From positions 1 to 33,922 of the forward strand of contig JAPPOW010000214.1 of the NCBI GenBank assembly GCA_028817775.1: 33,922 nt of DNA, given 5' to 3'. This DNA is from Candidatus Melainabacteria bacterium (GTDB taxonomy: Bacteria > Cyanobacteriota > Vampirovibrionia > LMEP-6097). The notes under the pieces are model-generated. The model saw only the letters and a program-made list of their open reading frames with translations, made no database searches and had not been told where the DNA came from. A program made the position numbers and the translations under genes. Below, piece after piece: positions 25,768 through 33,396 of this stretch. Numbering within the stretch: the stretch's first letter is position 1; each line of letters starts with the position of its first letter.

Positions 25768-26841
25768 GTGCAAAGCCTAATAGGATTAAACCTGAATGAG
25801 CTTGAGAGCCTAGTGCAGGAGCTAGGTCTGGAGAAGTTTCGTGCCAAACAAATCTATAAGTGGATCTACTCTAAATCCTGCCGTGATTTTGATGAGATGA
25901 CTGATCTTTCTACCAAGGCTCGTGATTTGCTCAAAGAAAAATCTAGTATCGGTTCACTTAAATTAGTCACTAGAGAAATTAGTTCTGATGGTACTGAGAA
26001 GTTTTTGTTTGAAACTTCTCAAGGTGAGAAAATTGAATCAGTACTAATGTACTTTGAGAATGTAAATTACTCAGAGGATGAGGGTGGCAATACTCCCCCA
26101 GGTAGATATAGTGCTTGTATTAGCTCACAAGTTGGTTGTGCGGTGGCTTGTCCGTTTTGTGCAACTGGTACCCTTGGTTTCAAACGTAACTTAAGTGCTT
26201 CTGAAATTATTGAGCAAGTTTTGTTTATGCAAAATCTTAGTGAGAAACGTATTGCCAATATTGTTTATATGGGGCAAGGAGAGCCGCTTAATAACTATGA
26301 TTCAGTGCTTAAGTCAATTAAACGAATTCGTGAGGATGTAGGTATTGGAGTGCGTCATATCACCGTCTCAACTAGTGGCGTGATTCCAAAAATTGAAGCA
26401 CTGGCTACTGAAGATCTGCAAATTACACTGGCACTATCTTTGCATGACTCAACTGACCAAGGTCGGGATTACTTAGTACCAATTAATTCTAAGTGGCCTG
26501 TATTTGAAGTGATTGATTCACTTAAGGATTATGTGCGTAAGACCAAGCGTCGGGTTACTATTGAGTATGTGATGCTTGATGGGGTTAATGATAGTCTCGA
26601 CAAGGCTAAGATTTTAGGTGAACTAATCAAAGATCTACATTGCAATGTCAATCTCATTCCTTATAACTCGACTGATGTTGATGATCCATTCAAGCGTTCT
26701 AATAGCAAACGAGTGGAAGAATTCTCCAAGGTCTTGAAACAGCATTGCAAAGGTAAGACTATTACTGTTCGTAAGGAACGCGGCCATGATATCAAGGCTG
26801 CTTGTGGGCAGTTGGCGAACTCTGTGGGTTCTAAAACTTAA
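25768..26841 (+). CDS. rlmN: 23S rRNA (A2503-C2)/tRNA methyltransferase RlmN
   Basis: CISSQVGCAVACPFCATG radical-SAM motif, MGQGEP, LSLH, NLIPYN and AACGQL. Confidence 0.96.
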   Translation: MQSLIGLNLNELESLVQELGLEKFRAKQIYKWIYSKSCRDFDEMTDLSTKARDLLKEKSSIGSLKLVTREISSDGTEKFLFETSQGEKIESVLMYFENVNYSEDEGGNTPPGRYSACISSQVGCAVACPFCATGTLGFKRNLSASEIIEQVLFMQNLSEKRIANIVYMGQGEPLNNYDSVLKSIKRIREDVGIGVRHITVSTSGVIPKIEALATEDLQITLALSLHDSTDQGRDYLVPINSKWPVFEVIDSLKDYVRKTKRRVTIEYVMLDGVNDSLDKAKILGELIKDLHCNVNLIPYNSTDVDDPFKRSNSKRVEEFSKVLKQHCKGKTITVRKERGHDIKAACGQLANSVGSKT

Positions 26842-26855
26842 ATTTCTGTCATAGC

Positions 26856-26977
26856 TTATGGTCACTACGTTCCCTGCATATGGCACTACGTGCCTGCTAA
26901 ATGCTCCGCTGAAGAATACAGGCGAAGCCCTACTGCAGGAGCGTAAGCTCCATATGCAGGGAACGTAGTGACCATAA
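26856..26977. mobile_element. MITE-like inverted repeat (28-bp perfect arms, 66-nt spacer)
   Basis: 26856-26883 is the exact reverse complement of 26950-26977. Confidence 0.75.
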
Positions 26978-27003
26978 AGCCATATCAAAGTTATAATAAA
27001 AAT

Positions 27004-29172
27004 ATGGCTAAAGCACCATCAGCTTTACAAGATTATGCTGCAAAGATCCAGCAAATATTCCGCAGGCAGGAATTTAAATACTTTAGCTATGCGCTAGCAG
27101 CATTTATTATGCTTAGTGCTTCGGCACTTTACTATCTTGAGACTAGTGACTATTTTAAGTACCCGCAGCTGAGTGAGGATAGATACCAACAAGTCGAACA
27201 AGAGCTTGATCGTTTGATCCAAAAATCAAGAACTGAACCACGAGAAGCTATTCGTTCACTTGAAACTTTTGTTTCTTTACCAAAGAAACTAGCTAATCGT
27301 AGAGCCTTTGTTCTAGCGAGACTTTATCAAGACATTAATGAACCAGCGCTTGCTATGCTTCATGCTTATGAATTGGATCGTGATTATTTGACCAAGTATA
27401 GCTTGGGCTTGCGTACTAGGATTGCAGAAAAAATTGGACTTGAAGGAATCGTAGTCAAGGACTTGGATTACTTATCTAAGAAATTTCCCAAGGAAGCAAG
27501 GTTTCTTTACCGGTTGGCAAAATCTTACTCAAGACAAAGTAGATTGCTAGAAGCGCGCAAAGCATTTAACCAAGTGCAAGAATTATTTCCGAATACTGAG
27601 TTTTCACTTGGTGCTGATTACTATCTAGCCAATATGACTAAAGATAGATCTGAGAAATTTACTCGTCTCAAAAATTATCTACGCAAAAGTCCGGAAGGAA
27701 GTCTTGCTTATTTAATTTCTGATCAGGTAGCAAGTTTAGAAGCAGAAGAGCGAGCAGAGTTTGATGACTTGAGCAACCAAGTTGCACTTAGTTATTACAA
27801 TCGTGAGGACTACGATAATGCAATTAAACATTTTAATACTGAATTGGATAGTCCTGATCTTTACTTAGATGCTTATGCTCGTACTCTAGCTAAACTTAAG
27901 CGCAAAGCTGAGGCTCGTCGCTTGATAGTTGATACTTTGCCGCAGATGAAAGAAAGTCACAAAGCCTCTCACCTAGTGGAATTGCTTTGCTCACTATCTC
28001 CTAAATGGCAAGCAATTCAGAATCTGACAGTATTGAAGAATAAAGTACCGCTTATCAAGGACAAGATCTTGTGGGAGCTGGCACTTAGAACTAAGACCAA
28101 GGCAGATTACCAAGCAGTCTATACTCAGTTCCCCAATAGTTACTATGCAGCTGAATCTATGTCACGTGTGTTTTGGAAAGAATATAAACGCCAGAACTAT
28201 CACAAGGCAGTAGAAATTTTCCGTAAGCATTGGAAGAGCTATCCAAATACCAACTCGCATCCTTTTGTGGCATTTTGGGCAGCACGCGCCTATGAGAAAC
28301 TGAATCAAACAAAGGACGCCAAAGCAACTTTGGAAAATTTGGTGATTGAGCATCCACGTGATTACTATGGCTACCGAGCTGAGCAAATTTTGCGTGATGA
28401 TAAAGATTGGTACAAGATGCCAAGCCCCAACAAATTTGTTTCTCTTCCTGACTGGGATTGGCCTGAGGTCTACACAGATGAAGAGATTGCAAAACAATAT
28501 GGCAAAGATTTGTTGGAGTTAAGCAAAATCGGACAGTTTGAATTTTTGTTAGAGAATGAGAAACAAGAAGGTTGGGATTACGACAAGAATTTGAAGATGT
28601 GGCTTTATGCTATGGCAGGTGATTACCTCAAAGCAATTAGCACCGCTTATTTCTCGATGCCAAAAAATTCAGCAGTTGACTATCACGAGATCAAATTTCA
28701 ATATGCGTTCCCGATGCCTTACGCTGGACTTGTTGCTGATGAAGTAAGTAAGAACCTTAAGGTTGATCCATTGCTTGCCCATTCATTAATCAAACAAGAA
28801 TCTCGTTACCAAAAAGACATAGTAAGTAAAGTTGGTGCTATCGGCTTGATGCAATTGATGCCATACACGGCACGCTCCCTAGCTCGTGGGCTTGAAATGA
28901 GACCACCGACTTCCAAGGATTTGATGCAGCCGGAGATTAATATAAAACTCGGTGTCAATTATATGGAAGATGTCTTTCAGACTTTTGATAATAATATGAT
29001 CCATGCAATTGCTTCTTATAATGCTGGTCCAGTGGCTATTAAAAACTGGCGTAAACGTTTTGGAAATCTAGACCCAGATGAGTTTATTGAGAATATTCCA
29101 TATGATGAGACCAAAACTTATGTTAAACATGTTCTAAATAACTTTTGGATTTATAAACAGTTATACAGCTAA
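27004..29172 (+). CDS. slt: Membrane-anchored TPR-containing Slt-family lytic transglycosylase (probable start 27004)
   Basis: IKQESRY, GAIGLMQLMP, ASYNAGP and IPYDETKTYV motifs. N-terminal TM segment and TPR-like helices. Confidence 0.92.
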   Translation: MAKAPSALQDYAAKIQQIFRRQEFKYFSYALAAFIMLSASALYYLETSDYFKYPQLSEDRYQQVEQELDRLIQKSRTEPREAIRSLETFVSLPKKLANRRAFVLARLYQDINEPALAMLHAYELDRDYLTKYSLGLRTRIAEKIGLEGIVVKDLDYLSKKFPKEARFLYRLAKSYSRQSRLLEARKAFNQVQELFPNTEFSLGADYYLANMTKDRSEKFTRLKNYLRKSPEGSLAYLISDQVASLEAEERAEFDDLSNQVALSYYNREDYDNAIKHFNTELDSPDLYLDAYARTLAKLKRKAEARRLIVDTLPQMKESHKASHLVELLCSLSPKWQAIQNLTVLKNKVPLIKDKILWELALRTKTKADYQAVYTQFPNSYYAAESMSRVFWKEYKRQNYHKAVEIFRKHWKSYPNTNSHPFVAFWAARAYEKLNQTKDAKATLENLVIEHPRDYYGYRAEQILRDDKDWYKMPSPNKFVSLPDWDWPEVYTDEEIAKQYGKDLLELSKIGQFEFLLENEKQEGWDYDKNLKMWLYAMAGDYLKAISTAYFSMPKNSAVDYHEIKFQYAFPMPYAGLVADEVSKNLKVDPLLAHSLIKQESRYQKDIVSKVGAIGLMQLMPYTARSLARGLEMRPPTSKDLMQPEINIKLGVNYMEDVFQTFDNNMIHAIASYNAGPVAIKNWRKRFGNLDPDEFIENIPYDETKTYVKHVLNNFWIYKQLYS

Positions 29173-29174
29173 TA

Positions 29175-29256
29175 CGCTCTAACGCTCTAGGGCTGTAGCG
29201 CTGTAACGGCTTTGCCGAGAACCGCTAGAGCGCTACAGCATTACAGCGTTACAGCG
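29175..29256. repeat. Inverted array of 8-bp short tandem repeats
   Basis: cgctctaa cgctctag ggctgtag cgctgtaa, then ctagagcg ctacagca ttacagcg ttacagcg in the opposite orientation. Confidence 0.85.
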
Positions 29257-29286
29257 AAAACTGGGCATAAAGTTAATGTACTCTAG

Positions 29287-29940
29287 ATGGACTCCTTAAC
29301 TAATCTACTTCCAGATCTTGAGCCAAGCTTGCAAATTGTAGGCTTGCTTTTTTTACTTAGTTTTTTGCCAGTGATGGTTGTGACAATGACGCCATTTTTG
29401 CGTATTGTCTTAGTACTATCTTTATTGCGTCAAGCACTAGGTACTCAAAACGCACCACCAACTATGGTACTTGTTGGTTTGAGTTTGATTTTGACCGGCT
29501 ATATATTAGGTCCAGAGATTTCACAAATCAATCAGCGTGCTTTGATTCCGCTTGCTAATAATCAGATTCAACTGACCACTGCACTGGATAGAACTTATGA
29601 TGAATTATCAGGTCATATGCTGCGCAATGTAGATGTTAAAGATCTTAAGTTCTTCTATAAACTGAGTAGAGAACCCTTTCCGACCAAGGTTGAGGATGTA
29701 GCAGCAAGAGAGCTGGGTACTGCTTACCTATTAGGAGAATTGCGAAGGGCGTTTCAGATAGGTTTCTTGGTCTTCATACCATTTTTGGTGATCGATTTGA
29801 TTGTCGCCAATATTCTACTTGCACTGGGGATGATTATGCTATCCCCGACTATTGTTTCGTTGCCGTTTAAGATTATGATCTTTGTTGCCATTGATGGTTG
29901 GGATCTAATTGTCAAAGGACTTGCTCAAAGTTTCAATTAA
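29287..29940 (+). CDS. fliP: T3SS/flagellar export gate protein FliP/SctR
   Basis: LLRQALGTQNAPP, ELRRAFQIGF...PFLVIDL and LPFK...DGW motifs. No N-terminal signal peptide. Confidence 0.92.
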   Translation: MDSLTNLLPDLEPSLQIVGLLFLLSFLPVMVVTMTPFLRIVLVLSLLRQALGTQNAPPTMVLVGLSLILTGYILGPEISQINQRALIPLANNQIQLTTALDRTYDELSGHMLRNVDVKDLKFFYKLSREPFPTKVEDVAARELGTAYLLGELRRAFQIGFLVFIPFLVIDLIVANILLALGMIMLSPTIVSLPFKIMIFVAIDGWDLIVKGLAQSFN

Positions 29941-29950
29941 GATTTAAGTA

Positions 29951-30742
29951 ATGGACTGGATGCCACAAGCAATTAGGGAGGGAATATTCACGATATTGTT
30001 CATATCGGGTCCTCTAGTCGTGCTTGCTGCAGGACTAGGTTTGACTATTGGTGTGATTCAAGCTGCAACCCAGGTCCAAGAGCAAACTCTAGGTTCTGCT
30101 GTCAAGATTATTGGTTTATTTCTTGCATTAATAATTTTTGGTTTCTATATGTTTCAGTATATGAGTAATTATGATTCTCAAACCCTGGAGCGAGCATTTA
30201 AGTTGGTGCCGACTCTTGGTACCAAAGCGATGCCTCGGCGTAACTTCCTGGATGTACCCAATGGTGAAGTTGAAGAGCCGATTCATACAGCTGAGTTGAA
30301 TGAAGCTGAGCCACATGAAAGCCATGGTGGTCATCACAAAGCTGGTGCACTTGATGAACCAGATCATGTCACTAAAAATGAGAACTTGAAACCAGTTGCA
30401 ATTAAACCGCCGCAGTCAGCTCTTAGACCTAATAAAGATATTGAAGCAATCAAGAAACAAGACTTGACTATCAAGCATGCTGATCATCATCATAGCCAGC
30501 CAAAAGTGCAGAAGCCTAGAGCTGAATCAATTCGACCAGCGGCTAAGCCAAAGACTAATACCCAGCAACCGTCATTGCGAGCGCAGCAAAGCAATCCAGT
30601 TACAAGCAGTCCAAAACCATCAACTGGATTGCCACGTCGCGTTGCTCCTCGCAATGACGAGGGTCCAAAGAAACCACCAAAACGTTTACGCCGTTCTAGT
30701 GTCAGCGATAGGCTCAATAAACTCAAGGGGCTAGGACGCTAA
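29951..30742 (+). CDS. fliQ: Export gate protein FliQ/SctS with long disordered C-terminal extension
   Basis: IQAATQVQEQTL motif in the first ~90 aa, then ~175 aa rich in H/P/K/E/R. Confidence 0.85.
   Translation: MDWMPQAIREGIFTILFISGPLVVLAAGLGLTIGVIQAATQVQEQTLGSAVKIIGLFLALIIFGFYMFQYMSNYDSQTLERAFKLVPTLGTKAMPRRNFLDVPNGEVEEPIHTAELNEAEPHESHGGHHKAGALDEPDHVTKNENLKPVAIKPPQSALRPNKDIEAIKKQDLTIKHADHHHSQPKVQKPRAESIRPAAKPKTNTQQPSLRAQQSNPVTSSPKPSTGLPRRVAPRNDEGPKKPPKRLRRSSVSDRLNKLKGLGR
30570..30659. repeat. Family B REP/RPE-like doublet inside the fliQ reading frame
   Basis: cgtcattgcgag...ctcgcaatgacg is 90 bp with no stop in the fliQ frame. Confidence 0.88.
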
Positions 30743-31515
30743 TGGATTTATTCACTGATCTATTTCGCCAAAATTTGTTTGCCCAGATTGGTACTACTGT
30801 AGTGGCTTTGGGTTTTGTCTTGGTACGAGTACTAGCATTTATGCACTTTGCACCAATTTTCTCTCACAAGAGTGTGCCCTCGCATGTGCGTATTGGTTTT
30901 GCAATCTTCTTGACTAGTATGCTTGCTCCCAAAGCATTTGAGGCAGCGATTCCTGATGATGGTTTTTCTATCCTCTATGTCTTGTTTGCAAATTTTGCAC
31001 TTGGTTTCATTATTGGTTTCACCACTAATATTTTATTTACTACTGTCGTTGCTGGTGGTGAGATGATGGACGCAGCAATGGGTTTCTCCTCAGGGCAAAT
31101 GTTTGATCCAAGTCTTGGCGGGCAGACTACAATACTGGGTAGGTTTATGGGGATCTTGACCATTGTGGTTTTCTTCCAGATTGGTGGTCCTGAAGCATTG
31201 ATTCAGGGACTCTATAATAGCTTTGATACTTTCACTTTGTTTGATCCTAATATGACGATCAATGTTGCCAAGATTATTCATTTGGTTGGTGACATTATTA
31301 GAATGGGTTTTGTTCTTGTAAGTCCGGTGGTCTTGACAATCTTAGTTAATGATCTGGTCTTGGGCCTATTGTCGCGCGCTTCTCCACAGATCAATGCTTT
31401 CCAGATTTCATTCACGATTAAACCAATGGTAGGGGTTCTCATTTTGTTGATGATTTTGCCTTTATTCTTTACTGCTGTAGCCAACTTTTTGTCTTCTGGT
31501 TCAAGGCTTTACTAG
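30742..31515 (+). CDS. fliR: Export gate protein FliR/SctT
   Basis: RVLAFMHFAPIF, GGEMMDAAMGFS...FDP and LGLLSRASPQINAF...FTIK motifs. Coupled to the fliQ stop (TAATG). Confidence 0.92.
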   Translation: MDLFTDLFRQNLFAQIGTTVVALGFVLVRVLAFMHFAPIFSHKSVPSHVRIGFAIFLTSMLAPKAFEAAIPDDGFSILYVLFANFALGFIIGFTTNILFTTVVAGGEMMDAAMGFSSGQMFDPSLGGQTTILGRFMGILTIVVFFQIGGPEALIQGLYNSFDTFTLFDPNMTINVAKIIHLVGDIIRMGFVLVSPVVLTILVNDLVLGLLSRASPQINAFQISFTIKPMVGVLILLMILPLFFTAVANFLSSGSRLY

Positions 31516-31545
31516 TTCTTAACCTAAAAACAATAAACTTAATAC

Positions 31546-32445
31546 ATGCAAAGGAAGGGACTCCTATTTTTAATTTCTGTATTATTACTGAGCTTTTTAA
31601 GTTTTACTAAGGCTCAGGCGCAGTATATTACACAGAACAATCAAATGGCCATCTTATTAGTAGGTTTGACTGCTGATGAGCTAGCCAATCACGAACTTAA
31701 ATTGCTCAAGGGCAAGAAGATTATTGAAGTACCTTATACACTTAATTGGCGCAACACCCTCCAGAACACTCAAGCTGACGAAGTATTGCTTCGTCAGAAC
31801 TCTGGCTTCGTTGGACTTTATACACCAGGTGGTAGCTTAGTTAGACCAGTAGATATTGAGGCTGGCAATCCTTATTCTGAGCAGAATCCAGCTCCACCTG
31901 AAACTGTTCAAGCTCCACATCAAGCAGAATTTTCACAGATAGGTTATTCTACTGGTGGTCGTATCGATCCTTACCAACCACAAGCTTATGCTTATGAACC
32001 AAAGGACAACTCTAAACTAGCTGCAGGCTATGGTTATAATCCTCAAGTTGAACAACCAAAAGTTTTTAAGAAAAGCTCATGGGTTGATCTATTAAATTTT
32101 GTACCAATTGACGCTGTCACTCCTCTCAACTATCCAGGTACCTTTGATCAAACAGGTATCGGTACAGCTTATACACTTGGCGCCCTCCCCCACATTGGAG
32201 GTGCAGTAGCACAGTGGCGTAGAGCTAAATCAGAGAAGGAGAACTTTGATTACTATCAACAACAACAGCCACCTACCCACTCGGCTTTGCCACCAACTTA
32301 CCATCCTTATAACTCGACTGACCCGTCAAACCCAGTCAGTAACGATCCCAATTTAATTCGTTATCAAGAAATGCCACAAGCCTTTGTGCGTGAGTATCCT
32401 GCTTTCGGTACTACTAGTCCTGGTGGTTACTACAATAACCCTTAG
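31546..32445 (+). CDS. Secreted hypothetical protein, Pro/Tyr/Gln-rich
   Basis: Sec signal (...TKAQA|Q) and low-complexity P/Y/Q segments. Confidence 0.75.
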   Translation: MQRKGLLFLISVLLLSFLSFTKAQAQYITQNNQMAILLVGLTADELANHELKLLKGKKIIEVPYTLNWRNTLQNTQADEVLLRQNSGFVGLYTPGGSLVRPVDIEAGNPYSEQNPAPPETVQAPHQAEFSQIGYSTGGRIDPYQPQAYAYEPKDNSKLAAGYGYNPQVEQPKVFKKSSWVDLLNFVPIDAVTPLNYPGTFDQTGIGTAYTLGALPHIGGAVAQWRRAKSEKENFDYYQQQQPPTHSALPPTYHPYNSTDPSNPVSNDPNLIRYQEMPQAFVREYPAFGTTSPGGYYNNP

Positions 32446-32576
32446 AACCTGTCTTGAAAATCCAATAACTGCGTTTGCGAGGTCTCATTTATGCGTAATA
32501 AACTTCGGGTAAACTCAGAAAATCAACGATTTTCTTCGCTCGCAAGCCTTGTTCTTGAACTTTCAAGACAGGTTCT
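32444..32576. mobile_element. MITE-like element related to family C (16-bp perfect terminal IR)
   Basis: agaacctgtcttgaaa/tttcaagacaggttct. Internal tccaataactgcgtt, aacttcggg and tcgcaagccttgttcttgaa blocks are shared with the 4176 and/or 4891 copies. Confidence 0.72.
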
Positions 32577-33010
32577 TAATCTAAACCTCTAATAAATAAT
32601 GAATCAATATCATGTGCTCTGCCAATAGCTTTATCTACTAACGCTGCTGCAAAGCGGTAAATTGGAGATTCAGGCCTGCTTGTTACAAGGTGTATTGGTC
32701 TAGCAGCTTTAAGAGGTCTGAGCAAGACTTTGGCTTTGCGCAGGTGACCATCTTTGGCTACTATTTCAGAGTTTACGGTGTATCTTGCACCAGCAAGTTC
32801 TAGTTCTGTTGTTGAAGTGGCTGATCTTTTTAGTCCATGTTCTAGAGGGTCTATGCTTATCTCTGGTATATGGAAATCACATTCAGCAGGCAGTTTGCCT
32901 TCGATACTAAGTGCAAATTGATCCATCGCTACAAGCAGCTCAGTTTTCTCTGGGCATGAACTTGAATGAGCCTCTGTAGTTGAGATTGGACTTGTAGCTA
33001 GTAGAGTCAT
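32576..33010 (-). CDS. Hypothetical protein with Ser/Thr-rich N-terminus
   Basis: 144-aa ORF coupled to rnhA by a 4-bp overlap. Confidence 0.65.
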   Translation of the reverse strand: MTLLATSPISTTEAHSSSCPEKTELLVAMDQFALSIEGKLPAECDFHIPEISIDPLEHGLKRSATSTTELELAGARYTVNSEIVAKDGHLRKAKVLLRPLKAARPIHLVTSRPESPIYRFAAALVDKAIGRAHDIDSLFIRGLD

Positions 33011-33396
33011 AGTGCAAGATTAGCTAATTGATCAGCACGCTGGTTAAACTCCCTGCGTACATGAGTGAAGCTAATTTTATCAAATTCTTTGATTAATTCC
33101 TGCACCTTGAGAAAAATAACTTTAATATCTGGGTTCTTAACCCGATACTCACCATTGAGTTGTTTAACCATCAGCTCACTGTCAGCTTTGACTAGCACTT
33201 CTTGGTAACCTAATTCTTGAGCTTTGCGCAGCCCTTCAAGTAAGGCTGTGTATTCAGCAATATTGTTAGTAGCCTGTCCAATACTTTCTGAGATCCAGGC
33301 TACTTCTTTCTCATCAACAACTAGAGACGCGCCGATAGAAGCTGGTCCTGGATTGCCTTTAGAAGCACCATCTGTAAAAATTATTACCGAGCTCAT
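33007..33396 (-). CDS. rnhA: Ribonuclease HI (RNase HI-like family)
   Basis: FTDGASKGNPGP, TNNIAEY, DSELMVKQ and HVRREFNQRADQLAN motifs. Confidence 0.93.
   Translation of the reverse strand: MSSVIIFTDGASKGNPGPASIGASLVVDEKEVAWISESIGQATNNIAEYTALLEGLRKAQELGYQEVLVKADSELMVKQLNGEYRVKNPDIKVIFLKVQELIKEFDKISFTHVRREFNQRADQLANLAL

Follow-up and report, generated by a model that had tools for sequence, protein, structure and literature searches.

We analyzed the fliP, fliQ and fliR genes of a 33,922-nucleotide stretch of DNA from a Candidatus Melainabacteria bacterium (contig JAPPOW010000214.1; the whole stretch is referred to below as the window). These genes probably encode the export gate of a second apparatus of basal body and rod, which would not rotate, which is paralogous to an ordinary flagellar set in the same genome, and which probably serves protein export. 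We refer to the window-type gate and its system as A, and to the second, ordinary flagellar set of the same genome as B; the genome itself is G000 (the window being its contig C81), and numbers preceded by f, C and L are codes for families, contigs and loci. Relative to the published accounts of partial flagellar gene sets, as far as their available text goes, an A-type system as a paralogous, coexisting machine is new. The gate is encoded as follows.

29287..29940, + strand: fliP, A type, 217 amino acids, without N-terminal extension; Pfam FliP 3.2e-67
29951..30220, + strand: core of fliQ, residues 1-90, forming the gate's two-helix hairpin; Pfam Bac_export_3 2e-18 (residues 7-74)
30221..30742, + strand: C-terminal tail of fliQ, residues 91-263 plus stop; rich in Pro and Lys, of low complexity, net charge +13
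30742..31515, + strand: fliR, A type, 257 amino acids, export-gate subunit; Pfam Bac_export_1 1.8e-53

The whole fliQ gene (29951-30742, 263 amino acids) is three times the usual length, comprising a core of about 88-90 amino acids and a 173-amino-acid tail in which no additional hydrophobic or membrane helix was found; its stop codon overlaps the start of fliR.

Two gene sets in the genome and across Vampirovibrionia

G000 is a metagenome-assembled genome (MAG) of the Caenarcaniphilales (Melainabacteria), 2.0 Mb in 240 contigs, 89% complete and with 1.95% contamination. The first-pass annotation of the window, which had proposed a search for another fliPQR set, missed both the long FliQ tail and the second gate; the latter is present, with fliP-fliQ on C170 (FliP of 283 amino acids with an N-terminal extension, FliQ of 91) and fliR-flhB on C93. 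Identity between the A and B copies is 40% for FliP, 38% for FliQ and 27% for FliR. Also present twice are FlhA (C75, and C145, where it is partial), FlhB (C93 and C41), FliF (with one copy divided between contig ends), FliE, FliH, the FlgB-FlgC pair and the ATPase of type III secretion systems (T3SS), FliI. FliG_C, the MotB plug, FlgD and full-length FlgE (499 amino acids) are single-copy, and the genome also holds six flagellins, FlgK and FlgL. Across 40 relatives and G000, both FliP types occurred in 22 of the 25 f1 genomes; the remaining three, with one copy, are 63-92% complete.

In a search with the window FliP, the best 120 protein matches were all A-type Melainabacteria (62-100% identity). 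The 12 closest loci among genome records had 75-88% identity, and the match in Candidatus Caenarcanum bioreactoricola 54%; four of the 12 (L067, L068, L071 and L072) are titled (Gamma)proteobacteria and are probably mislabelled MAGs.

The gate had been described as stand-alone, but the rest of its apparatus is in the genome, scattered over other contigs (C41, C75, C152, C94, C199, C185, C44 and C180). We assigned G000 genes to A by their identity to the single-copy genes of f8, given first in each line below.

FlhA, C75: 64-66%; against relatives' B copies 37-39%
FliF, C94: 37-38%; against relatives' B copies 20-24%
FliI, C152: 63%; B paralog 49%
FlhB, C41: 52%; B paralog 33%
FlgC (flgBC), C199: 49%; B paralog 33%
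FliE, C94: 46%; B paralog 27%
Two rod genes, C185: 33% and 42%
SpoA gene (SctQ-like), C44: 34%; B paralog 30% (short stretch)
fliJ and a flgE-like gene, C180: 35% and 37-40%
Small lytic transglycosylase (SLT), C12: 37%

The A-type flgE-like gene (G000:C180:7584-8470) matches its f8 homolog in two pieces 2 nucleotides apart, through a frameshift or an assembly error.

Class-wide, we counted fliP and FliG_C in 201 genomes that were at least 85% complete.

f1, f2, f3, f5, f10 and f11: 67 genomes; FliG_C in 67/67; at least two fliP in 66
f6, f7 and f8: 76 genomes; FliG_C in 0/76; exactly one fliP in 75
f4 and f9: 58 genomes; no FliG_C and no fliP

No genome with B alone was seen among the 201. Gate type was examined in seven f6, f7 and f8 genomes, and in all seven the single gate was of A type (long-tailed FliQ, A-like identities); the other 68 single-gate genomes were only counted. 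Conservation of the A system extends across the class Vampirovibrionia, and in the motile families the system stands alongside B. We infer that f6 is the Gastranaerophilales.

Profile searches of the A-only genomes recovered no flagellin or FlgL (0/7), FlgI (0/5), MotB plug (0/4) or FlgD (0/4), and no Flg_bbr_C protein above 326 amino acids. Each of the seven keeps one FliF, full-length FlhA, FlhB, ATPase and SpoA protein, and short rod-type proteins number two in f6 and four in f8. The suggestion that A is an independently repurposed secretion system is a fair reading of this persistence without flagellin, FliG, MotB plug, FlgD or FlgI. In the motile genomes we found 5-20 Flagellin_N matches and 6-9 rod/hook proteins; one genome carries 16 flagellin genes in a tandem array (G026:C2:156379-175852) and 20 Flagellin_N matches in all.

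Gene order was compared in 30 loci from relatives. The A locus of every family reads fliP (213-265 amino acids), long-tailed fliQ (136-293) and fliR, and the B locus fliP (241-292) and fliQ (88-95), followed in f3 by fliR-flhB-flhA. This B operon, canonical in f3, is broken up in f1 (G000:C170 and C93; L161 and L162), where fliP-fliQ is flanked by a GT9 glycosyltransferase/fur and purA and fliR-flhB is located elsewhere. That the window holds no fliO or flhB, as had been noted for the flanks of the gate, agrees with its open reading frame (ORF) list and Pfam matches; outside f1, however, a SpoA-domain gene of about 390-480 amino acids and fliO lie directly 5' of A-type fliP, which again speaks against a stand-alone gate.

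The fullest A operon (f3, L231) encodes, in order and with lengths in amino acids, x336, two FlgF/G-like proteins (232 and 235), FlgB (117), FlgC (148), SLT (193), FliE (112), FliF (539), x317, FliH (224), FlhA (702), FliI (449), FliJ (159), x256 (a weak FliK match, 1e-3) and an FlgE/F/G-like protein (276), where x marks genes named by length only. Order in f8 is identical from the FlgFG rod genes to FliH; f6 has FliE-FliF-x338-FliH-FlhA, and C94 of G000 has fliE-fliF-x124-fliH. FlgB, FlgC, FliE, FliF, FliH, FlhA and FliI are all carried by the A operons of f3, f6 and f8. By gene content, the A system consists of FliF, FliE, FlgB and FlgC; FlgF/G/E-like proteins, two or three in number; a lytic transglycosylase of small size; FliH, FliI and FliJ; FlhA and FlhB; FliO, FliP, long-tailed FliQ and FliR; a single SpoA protein that is SctQ-like; and a small protein encoded between FliF and FliH.

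The SpoA protein has no FliM domain; the SctQ model covers its C-terminal half, with two SpoA domains, at 52-71 bits (under cut-off), and is its best model in f8 and G000 and second to FliN in f3 and f6. The protein of the FliF-FliH interval has 317-398 amino acids in f3, f6 and f10 and 124-131 in f1 and f8, with one common helical motif. Its likeness to FliG is slight (Pfam FliG_M, weak, 6.3e-5; hhalign to the B FliG alignment, 65%, E 6e-5, 62 columns), and an AlphaFold model of it (5 sequences; pLDDT 72, pTM 0.45) matched nothing in the PDB at E <= 0.001 with Foldseek. A homolog of this protein was not found in the four f7 loci scanned. In f7, FliF is also longer, 629-679 amino acids (L228:9740-11629; G036:C56), and the G030 copy has no YscJ_FliF_C match in Pfam; the f7 system may be further reduced or diverged.

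Some extra genes accompany these sets. In f6 and f3 there are separate ORFs of about 490-516 amino acids whose match to FlhA is confined to its cytoplasmic C-terminal half (PF00771, about 308-656).

FlhA C-terminal-half ORFs: G029:C6:10760-11788; G035:C15:12305-13324; G040:C8:59709-60731 (about 6 kb from A-type fliPQR); G026:C7:59407-60495

An additional gene lies between A-type fliQ and fliR in G026 (f3; L155:4973-6100, 375 amino acids) and G029 (f6; L160:6095-6463, 122 amino acids), with weak PF13629 T2SS-T3SS_pil_N matches (E about 1e-3) in both; the gene numbering of ACD20 in the available part of Di Rienzi 2013 (PMC3787301) likewise skips one gene between fliQ and fliR. A third FlhB-like stretch (G020:C2:89901-90907), with one TGA and four TAA inside the match, is probably a pseudogene.

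Gate sequence and phylogenetic placement

The A gate belongs to the same families, in the same fliP-fliQ-fliR order, as the ordinary flagellar gate FliPQR-FlhB-FlhA of Salmonella and Bacillus, and FliO, FliE, FlgB/C, FliF and FliHIJ occur in both. The window FliP passes the flagellar equivalog cut-off (TIGR01103, fliP, 225 against 217.45) and not that of the injectisome (TIGR01102, SctR, 180.8 against 208.6), whereas FliQ (TIGR01402, fliQ, 60.8 against 88.9; SctS, 51 against 76.5) and FliR (TIGR01400, fliR, 163.1 against 168.6; SctT, 147 against 163) fall below both. The B copies of FliP, FliQ and FliR scored 263, 92.3 and 137.4 on the flagellar equivalogs, and B FliP scored 169 on SctR. A differs from the ordinary gate in forming a separate clade, in its FliQ tail, and in a FliP without N-terminal extension or PPNQ.

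For motif comparison we used 57 FliP sequences (19 A, 14 B, 19 flagellar and five SctR). The motifs first noted in the window (MTPFLR, PPTMVL, VANILLALGMIMLSP, LRQALGTQ, LAQSF and, in FliQ, QEQTLGSAVK) are all in the translations, as is the length of 217 amino acids for FliP, and its SctR-like motifs and missing N-terminal extension are borne out by the comparison. The proline motif is PPNQ in flagellar FliP, PPxx without Q in A and P[PS]N[ML] in SctR; the second motif is VANILLALGMxMLSPT in A, VSxILLALGMMMMSP in SctR and VASVLMxMGMMMLxPV in flagellar FliP. The median number of residues ahead of the FliP core is 24 in A, 15 in SctR, 60 in B and 74 in flagellar proteins. These comparisons put the consensus stated in the first-pass annotation to the test. 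FliP of Bacillus velezensis (L337:3030-3695), an ordinary Firmicute protein, has 221 amino acids, so a short FliP lacking a long N-terminal extension is not on its own an injectisome trait. The flagellar TF[IV]PK of FliQ, found in B and flagellar proteins, is replaced by GSAVK in the window, but 8 of 19 A-type FliQ proteins retain the Pro, and its absence is therefore true of the window and not of the entire A clade.

A tail of 46-203 amino acids was present on 19/19 A-type FliQ proteins. Against these we compared 39 proteins (B, flagellar and SctS), whose total length was 84-122 amino acids, with nothing equivalent among them. Proportions of nonsynonymous (pN) and synonymous (pS) differences were taken from six sequence pairs, of which three are from f1, one from f8 and two from f6. 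For fliP, the fliQ core and fliR, pN was 0.04-0.26 against a saturated pS of 0.62-0.83, in flagellated and A-only pairs alike (fliQ core, 0.05-0.17 against 0.62-0.76; fliP in A-only pairs, 0.04-0.09 against 0.68-0.78); the tail, with pN of 0.12-0.58, is less constrained than the core. By this measure the A genes of flagellum-less lineages are under purifying selection, not decaying.

References for the trees came from annotated plasmid records, for five injectisomes (Yersinia enterocolitica, Shigella sonnei, Pantoea, Sinorhizobium fredii and Burkholderia savannae) and for the flagella of Thermomicrobium, Arthrobacter, Azospirillum, Bacillus and Acetoanaerobium, plus 18 named genome loci. The FliP and concatenated FliPQR trees were inferred with IQ-TREE under a PMSF mixture (for FliP with quick search and SH-aLRT); asterisks on supports are as given. 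In the FliP tree (57 rows), SctR formed a clade (100*) and the flagellar references plus B lay on one side (99*), with A in between. With FliP joined to the FliQ core and to FliR in alignments of 622 columns (45 and 47 rows), the tree divided three ways, into Sct at 100*, A at 97-98*, and flagellar references plus B at 99-100, B lying near Terrabacteria-type flagella. A FastTree of FlhA that included 149 representatives placed B (99*) within the flagellar mass and separated A (100*) and SctV (100*), A standing beside SctV weakly (77), whereas in the mixture-model FlhA tree (46 rows), where SctV was split from the rest at 100*, A (100*) lay outside the other flagellar FlhA and B (81-90). Among 1.8 billion representatives the best non-self FlhA match had 44% identity and the others 33-42%, save for a 406-amino-acid fragment at 54%.

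In none of the trees did A nest among the sampled bona fide flagellar gates, nor is it the only gate of its genome, so that the twofold finding the first-pass annotation had set as its own disproof did not appear. Judged from these trees, A is a distinct deep lineage, within the sample neither ordinary-flagellar nor injectisomal. The description of the gate as intermediate between flagellum and injectisome accordingly stands as regards its SctR-like motifs and its position outside the sampled flagellar clade, and fails in that A is no injectisome, being excluded from the Sct clade at 100*.

Neighbouring genes of the window

The window genes slt, fliP, fliQ, fliR and the orphan were confirmed at their noted places by ORF listing and translation, the lytic transglycosylase 5' of the gate and a putatively secreted orphan 3' of it.

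26968..29172, + strand: slt, 734 amino acids from GTG, with a TPR-rich N-terminal region and a C-terminal SLT domain; the start first noted, 27004, is the first internal ATG
31546..32445, + strand: orphan, 299 amino acids, with a hydrophobic N-terminus resembling a signal peptide; found in f1 and f2 only

The slt product matches Pfam SLT (1.6e-28) and TPR repeats. Its best NCBIfam model, BB0259_flg_lyt (NF047373), was matched at 170 bits against a cut-off of 234 and over residues 550-733 only, which leaves the protein outside that family, and the general Slt model NF008631 at 112.6 bits, under its cut-off of 536; the layout of TPR and SLT is probably that of a general Slt70-like enzyme. In G000 and three of the four other f1 loci (L179, L180 and L182, the exception being L181) the gene stands upstream of A-type fliP, which is not so in f2 (L183), and its slt-rlmN-acad neighbourhood is confined to f1 (the window and three of the four other loci). 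The small SLT of the f8/f3 rod operons matches G000:C12 at 37% identity (E 8e-35) and the window slt at 33%, in the catalytic domain only. Because the rod-operon ortholog maps to C12, the window slt, which had been taken for a partner of the gate, is probably not the A system's own transglycosylase, and its membership in the system is uncertain.

The orphan matched no Pfam or NCBIfam family and had no usable match in the Atlas (own model pLDDT 0.47, best feature score 0.83). Homologs with 34-58% identity and 40 invariant columns lie 3' of A-type fliR in all five f1/f2 loci examined, directly so in L179, L180 and L182 and one to two ORFs farther in L181 and L183, and are absent from A loci of the other families. 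Beyond it, at 33007-33396 on the minus strand, is an RNase H/RVT_3-like gene of 129 amino acids whose homologs lie close to the orphan gene in G012 and G007. A scan of 26700-32700 for promoters and terminators gave 13 and 6 matches against 12.8 and 4.6 in shuffles, with nothing in the slt-fliP gap.

Alternative explanations and likely function

The evidence above can be read in other ways. A might be the basal body of a second flagellar system that shares the hook, filament, rotor and stator of B and was later left alone, an explanation that we consider unlikely. Its possession of FliE, FlgB, FlgC, FliO, FliJ and a FliK-like gene is consistent with this, as are the many flagellins and rod/hook proteins of the motile genomes. 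Bacteria with dual polar and lateral flagella also have two paralogous export and basal-body sets per genome. Known dual flagellar systems, however, duplicate the rotor, stator and hook genes, whereas G000 has a single copy each for rotor, stator, hook cap and full-length hook (FliG_C, MotB plug, FlgD and full-length FlgE), so that each set does not have its own, and one set survives without filament genes. A itself is unlinked to flagellin, FliG, Mot, FlgD and FlgI, retains no more than a small protein whose FliG-like motif is weak at best, and persists in A-only families that lack such parts (FliG_C in 0/76, the others in smaller samples).

Alternatively, A could be what remains of a single flagellar system under loss, through genome decay in non-motile lineages; we think this quite improbable. 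The A-only genomes are small (1.6-2.5 Mb), and both Di Rienzi 2013 and Soo 2014, in their available text, read partial sets as reduction or loss. Filament-less machines are known from basal bodies of Buchnera aphidicola (PMC8109811; export machine plus basal body) and from the flagellar T3SS-like system of non-flagellated Lysobacter enzymogenes (PMC7688988), with export proposed for both in the parts of these papers that we drew on. These are remnants of a sole flagellar system, as far as those accounts go, whereas A is a separate, probably older paralog that has sequence signatures of its own and also stands beside a complete flagellum. Motile genomes hold A on top of a complete B, and A is therefore no subset of B; moreover, the one-copy state is held in 75 of 76 genomes of three families, and in A-only pairs the genes have unbroken ORFs and show strong purifying selection.

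A slim chance goes to a role for A in building or regulating the B flagellum of motile species (for example, by exporting early parts), with a leftover role elsewhere. Such an assembly helper would fit the joint presence of A and B in 66 of 67 FliG-bearing genomes and the absence of any B-only genome. B nevertheless has a full export apparatus of its own (the canonical operon of f3), and A is retained where there is nothing to assemble.

A place for the gate within the non-flagellar T3SS lineage (SctRST) seems to us very improbable. The SctR-like motifs, short N-terminus and SctQ-like SpoA protein point that way, as does the weak placement of A FlhA beside SctV, and non-flagellar T3SSs, including the secretin-less Myxococcales form described in the available part of Abby and Rocha 2012 (PMC3459982), resemble A in being flagellum-derived without motility genes. 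A lytic transglycosylase is also encoded in both, in the A rod operon and as IpgF in the Shigella locus. But A is excluded from the Sct clade at 100* in four trees, every Sct equivalog score is under both its cut-off and the flagellar score, and A keeps FliE, FlgB, FlgC, FliO and a long, full-length FliF. The A loci contain no needle, SctD or secretin genes in or beside them (SctD and SctF were not searched by profile). The flagellum definition given in the portion of that paper at hand, T3SS core plus FlgB, FlgC and FliE, covers the A operons of f3, f6 and f8; the parts essential for motility (FliG, MotB, FlgD, full-length FlgE, FlgL and flagellin) are missing from the A-only genomes sampled.

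A gate binned into the MAG from another organism, conceivable for an assembly of 240 contigs at 89% completeness, is rejected, since contamination is 1.95% and the paralog pair recurs in 22 of 25 family genomes, in 10-20-contig assemblies and in one-contig genomes of other families.

We therefore return to a second, non-rotating apparatus. Such a system would build an MS ring with an export gate, and through the peptidoglycan a rod, on which a short FlgE-like piece possibly forms a cap; lacking rotor, stator and filament, it would not turn. Less surely, it would act as a protein export device driven by FliHIJ and the proton-motive force, with four disordered FliQ tails at the gate's cytoplasmic mouth.

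Several points weigh against this interpretation. No outer-membrane component is linked to A; secretins occur in A-only genomes, none adjoining A loci. PF06429 rod-type proteins were found in 0/2 f7 genomes, so that the rod is either not universal or too diverged there. The FliPQR trees left out Spirochaetes, Thermotogae, Campylobacterota, Chlamydiae and Myxococcales, and in the mixture-model FlhA tree, which has the better model of the two, A falls on the flagellar side where SctV splits off, as sister to one sequence (96*). When A and B were constrained to one clade, the log-likelihood fell by 26 and 23 units (p-AU 0.029 and 0.047), a weak rejection, and A is possibly a fast-evolving duplicate of B that arose within the lineage. 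A could also help flagellum assembly in motile species. Finally, ORFs were called by a simple in-house rule, on MAGs.

Partial flagellar sets in Melainabacteria have been reported before, and what follows rests on the text available from each source. Di Rienzi 2013 (PMC3787301) lists 13 flagellar genes common to the first four genomes; in ACD20 one scaffold bears flgG, flgG, flgC, fliF, fliH, flhA, fliI and flgE, and fliP, fliQ, fliR and flhB are there in addition, and MEL.A1, without filament, cap and junction proteins or L/P rings, is read as undergoing reduction. Soo 2014 (PMC4040986) finds 'only a subset' in six of nine Gastranaerophilales, and Utami 2018 (PMC5877343) also reports partial sets. 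A preprint (bioRxiv 10.64898/2026.04.24.720558) assigns a full set to about 25% of Gastranaerophilales, the rest keeping flhB, fliI and flgG, with the retained genes 'postulated to be involved in extracellular secretion'. In the Vampirovibrio genome paper a flagellum alone is mentioned. The list of Di Rienzi 2013 matches the A operons, and these published partial sets are almost certainly the same genes. The accounts treat them as incomplete flagella or genome reduction, not as a distinct paralogous system beside a full set, and no description of two paralogous systems was found in the text covered, which does not extend to Fig. S7 of Soo and Supplementary file 1 of Di Rienzi.

A bolder proposal, which we offer tentatively and hold to be doubtful, is that A represents a third ancient type III lineage, in which a flagellar basal body was independently turned into a non-rotating, rod-keeping export or injection device, branching near the departure of the injectisome and delivering proteins to hosts, prey or neighbours of gut and predatory Melainabacteria. 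The model of exaptation from flagellum to injectisome stems from Abby and Rocha 2012 (PMC3459982; available part). For that step one lineage is on record, with one proposed intermediate in the Myxococcales. In A the rotor, stator and filament would be gone, an SctQ-like protein and gate motifs resembling those of SctR would have been acquired, and the rod would be retained; if this is true, a second independent flagellum-derived machine lets the exaptation question be tested by comparison.

Published surveys score motility in Melainabacteria through counts of flagellar genes. With the A set present in every member that has a gate, two machines are lumped together in these counts. The Gastranaerophilales live in the human gut, and a conserved export device there would be a candidate route to interaction with the host or with other microbes.

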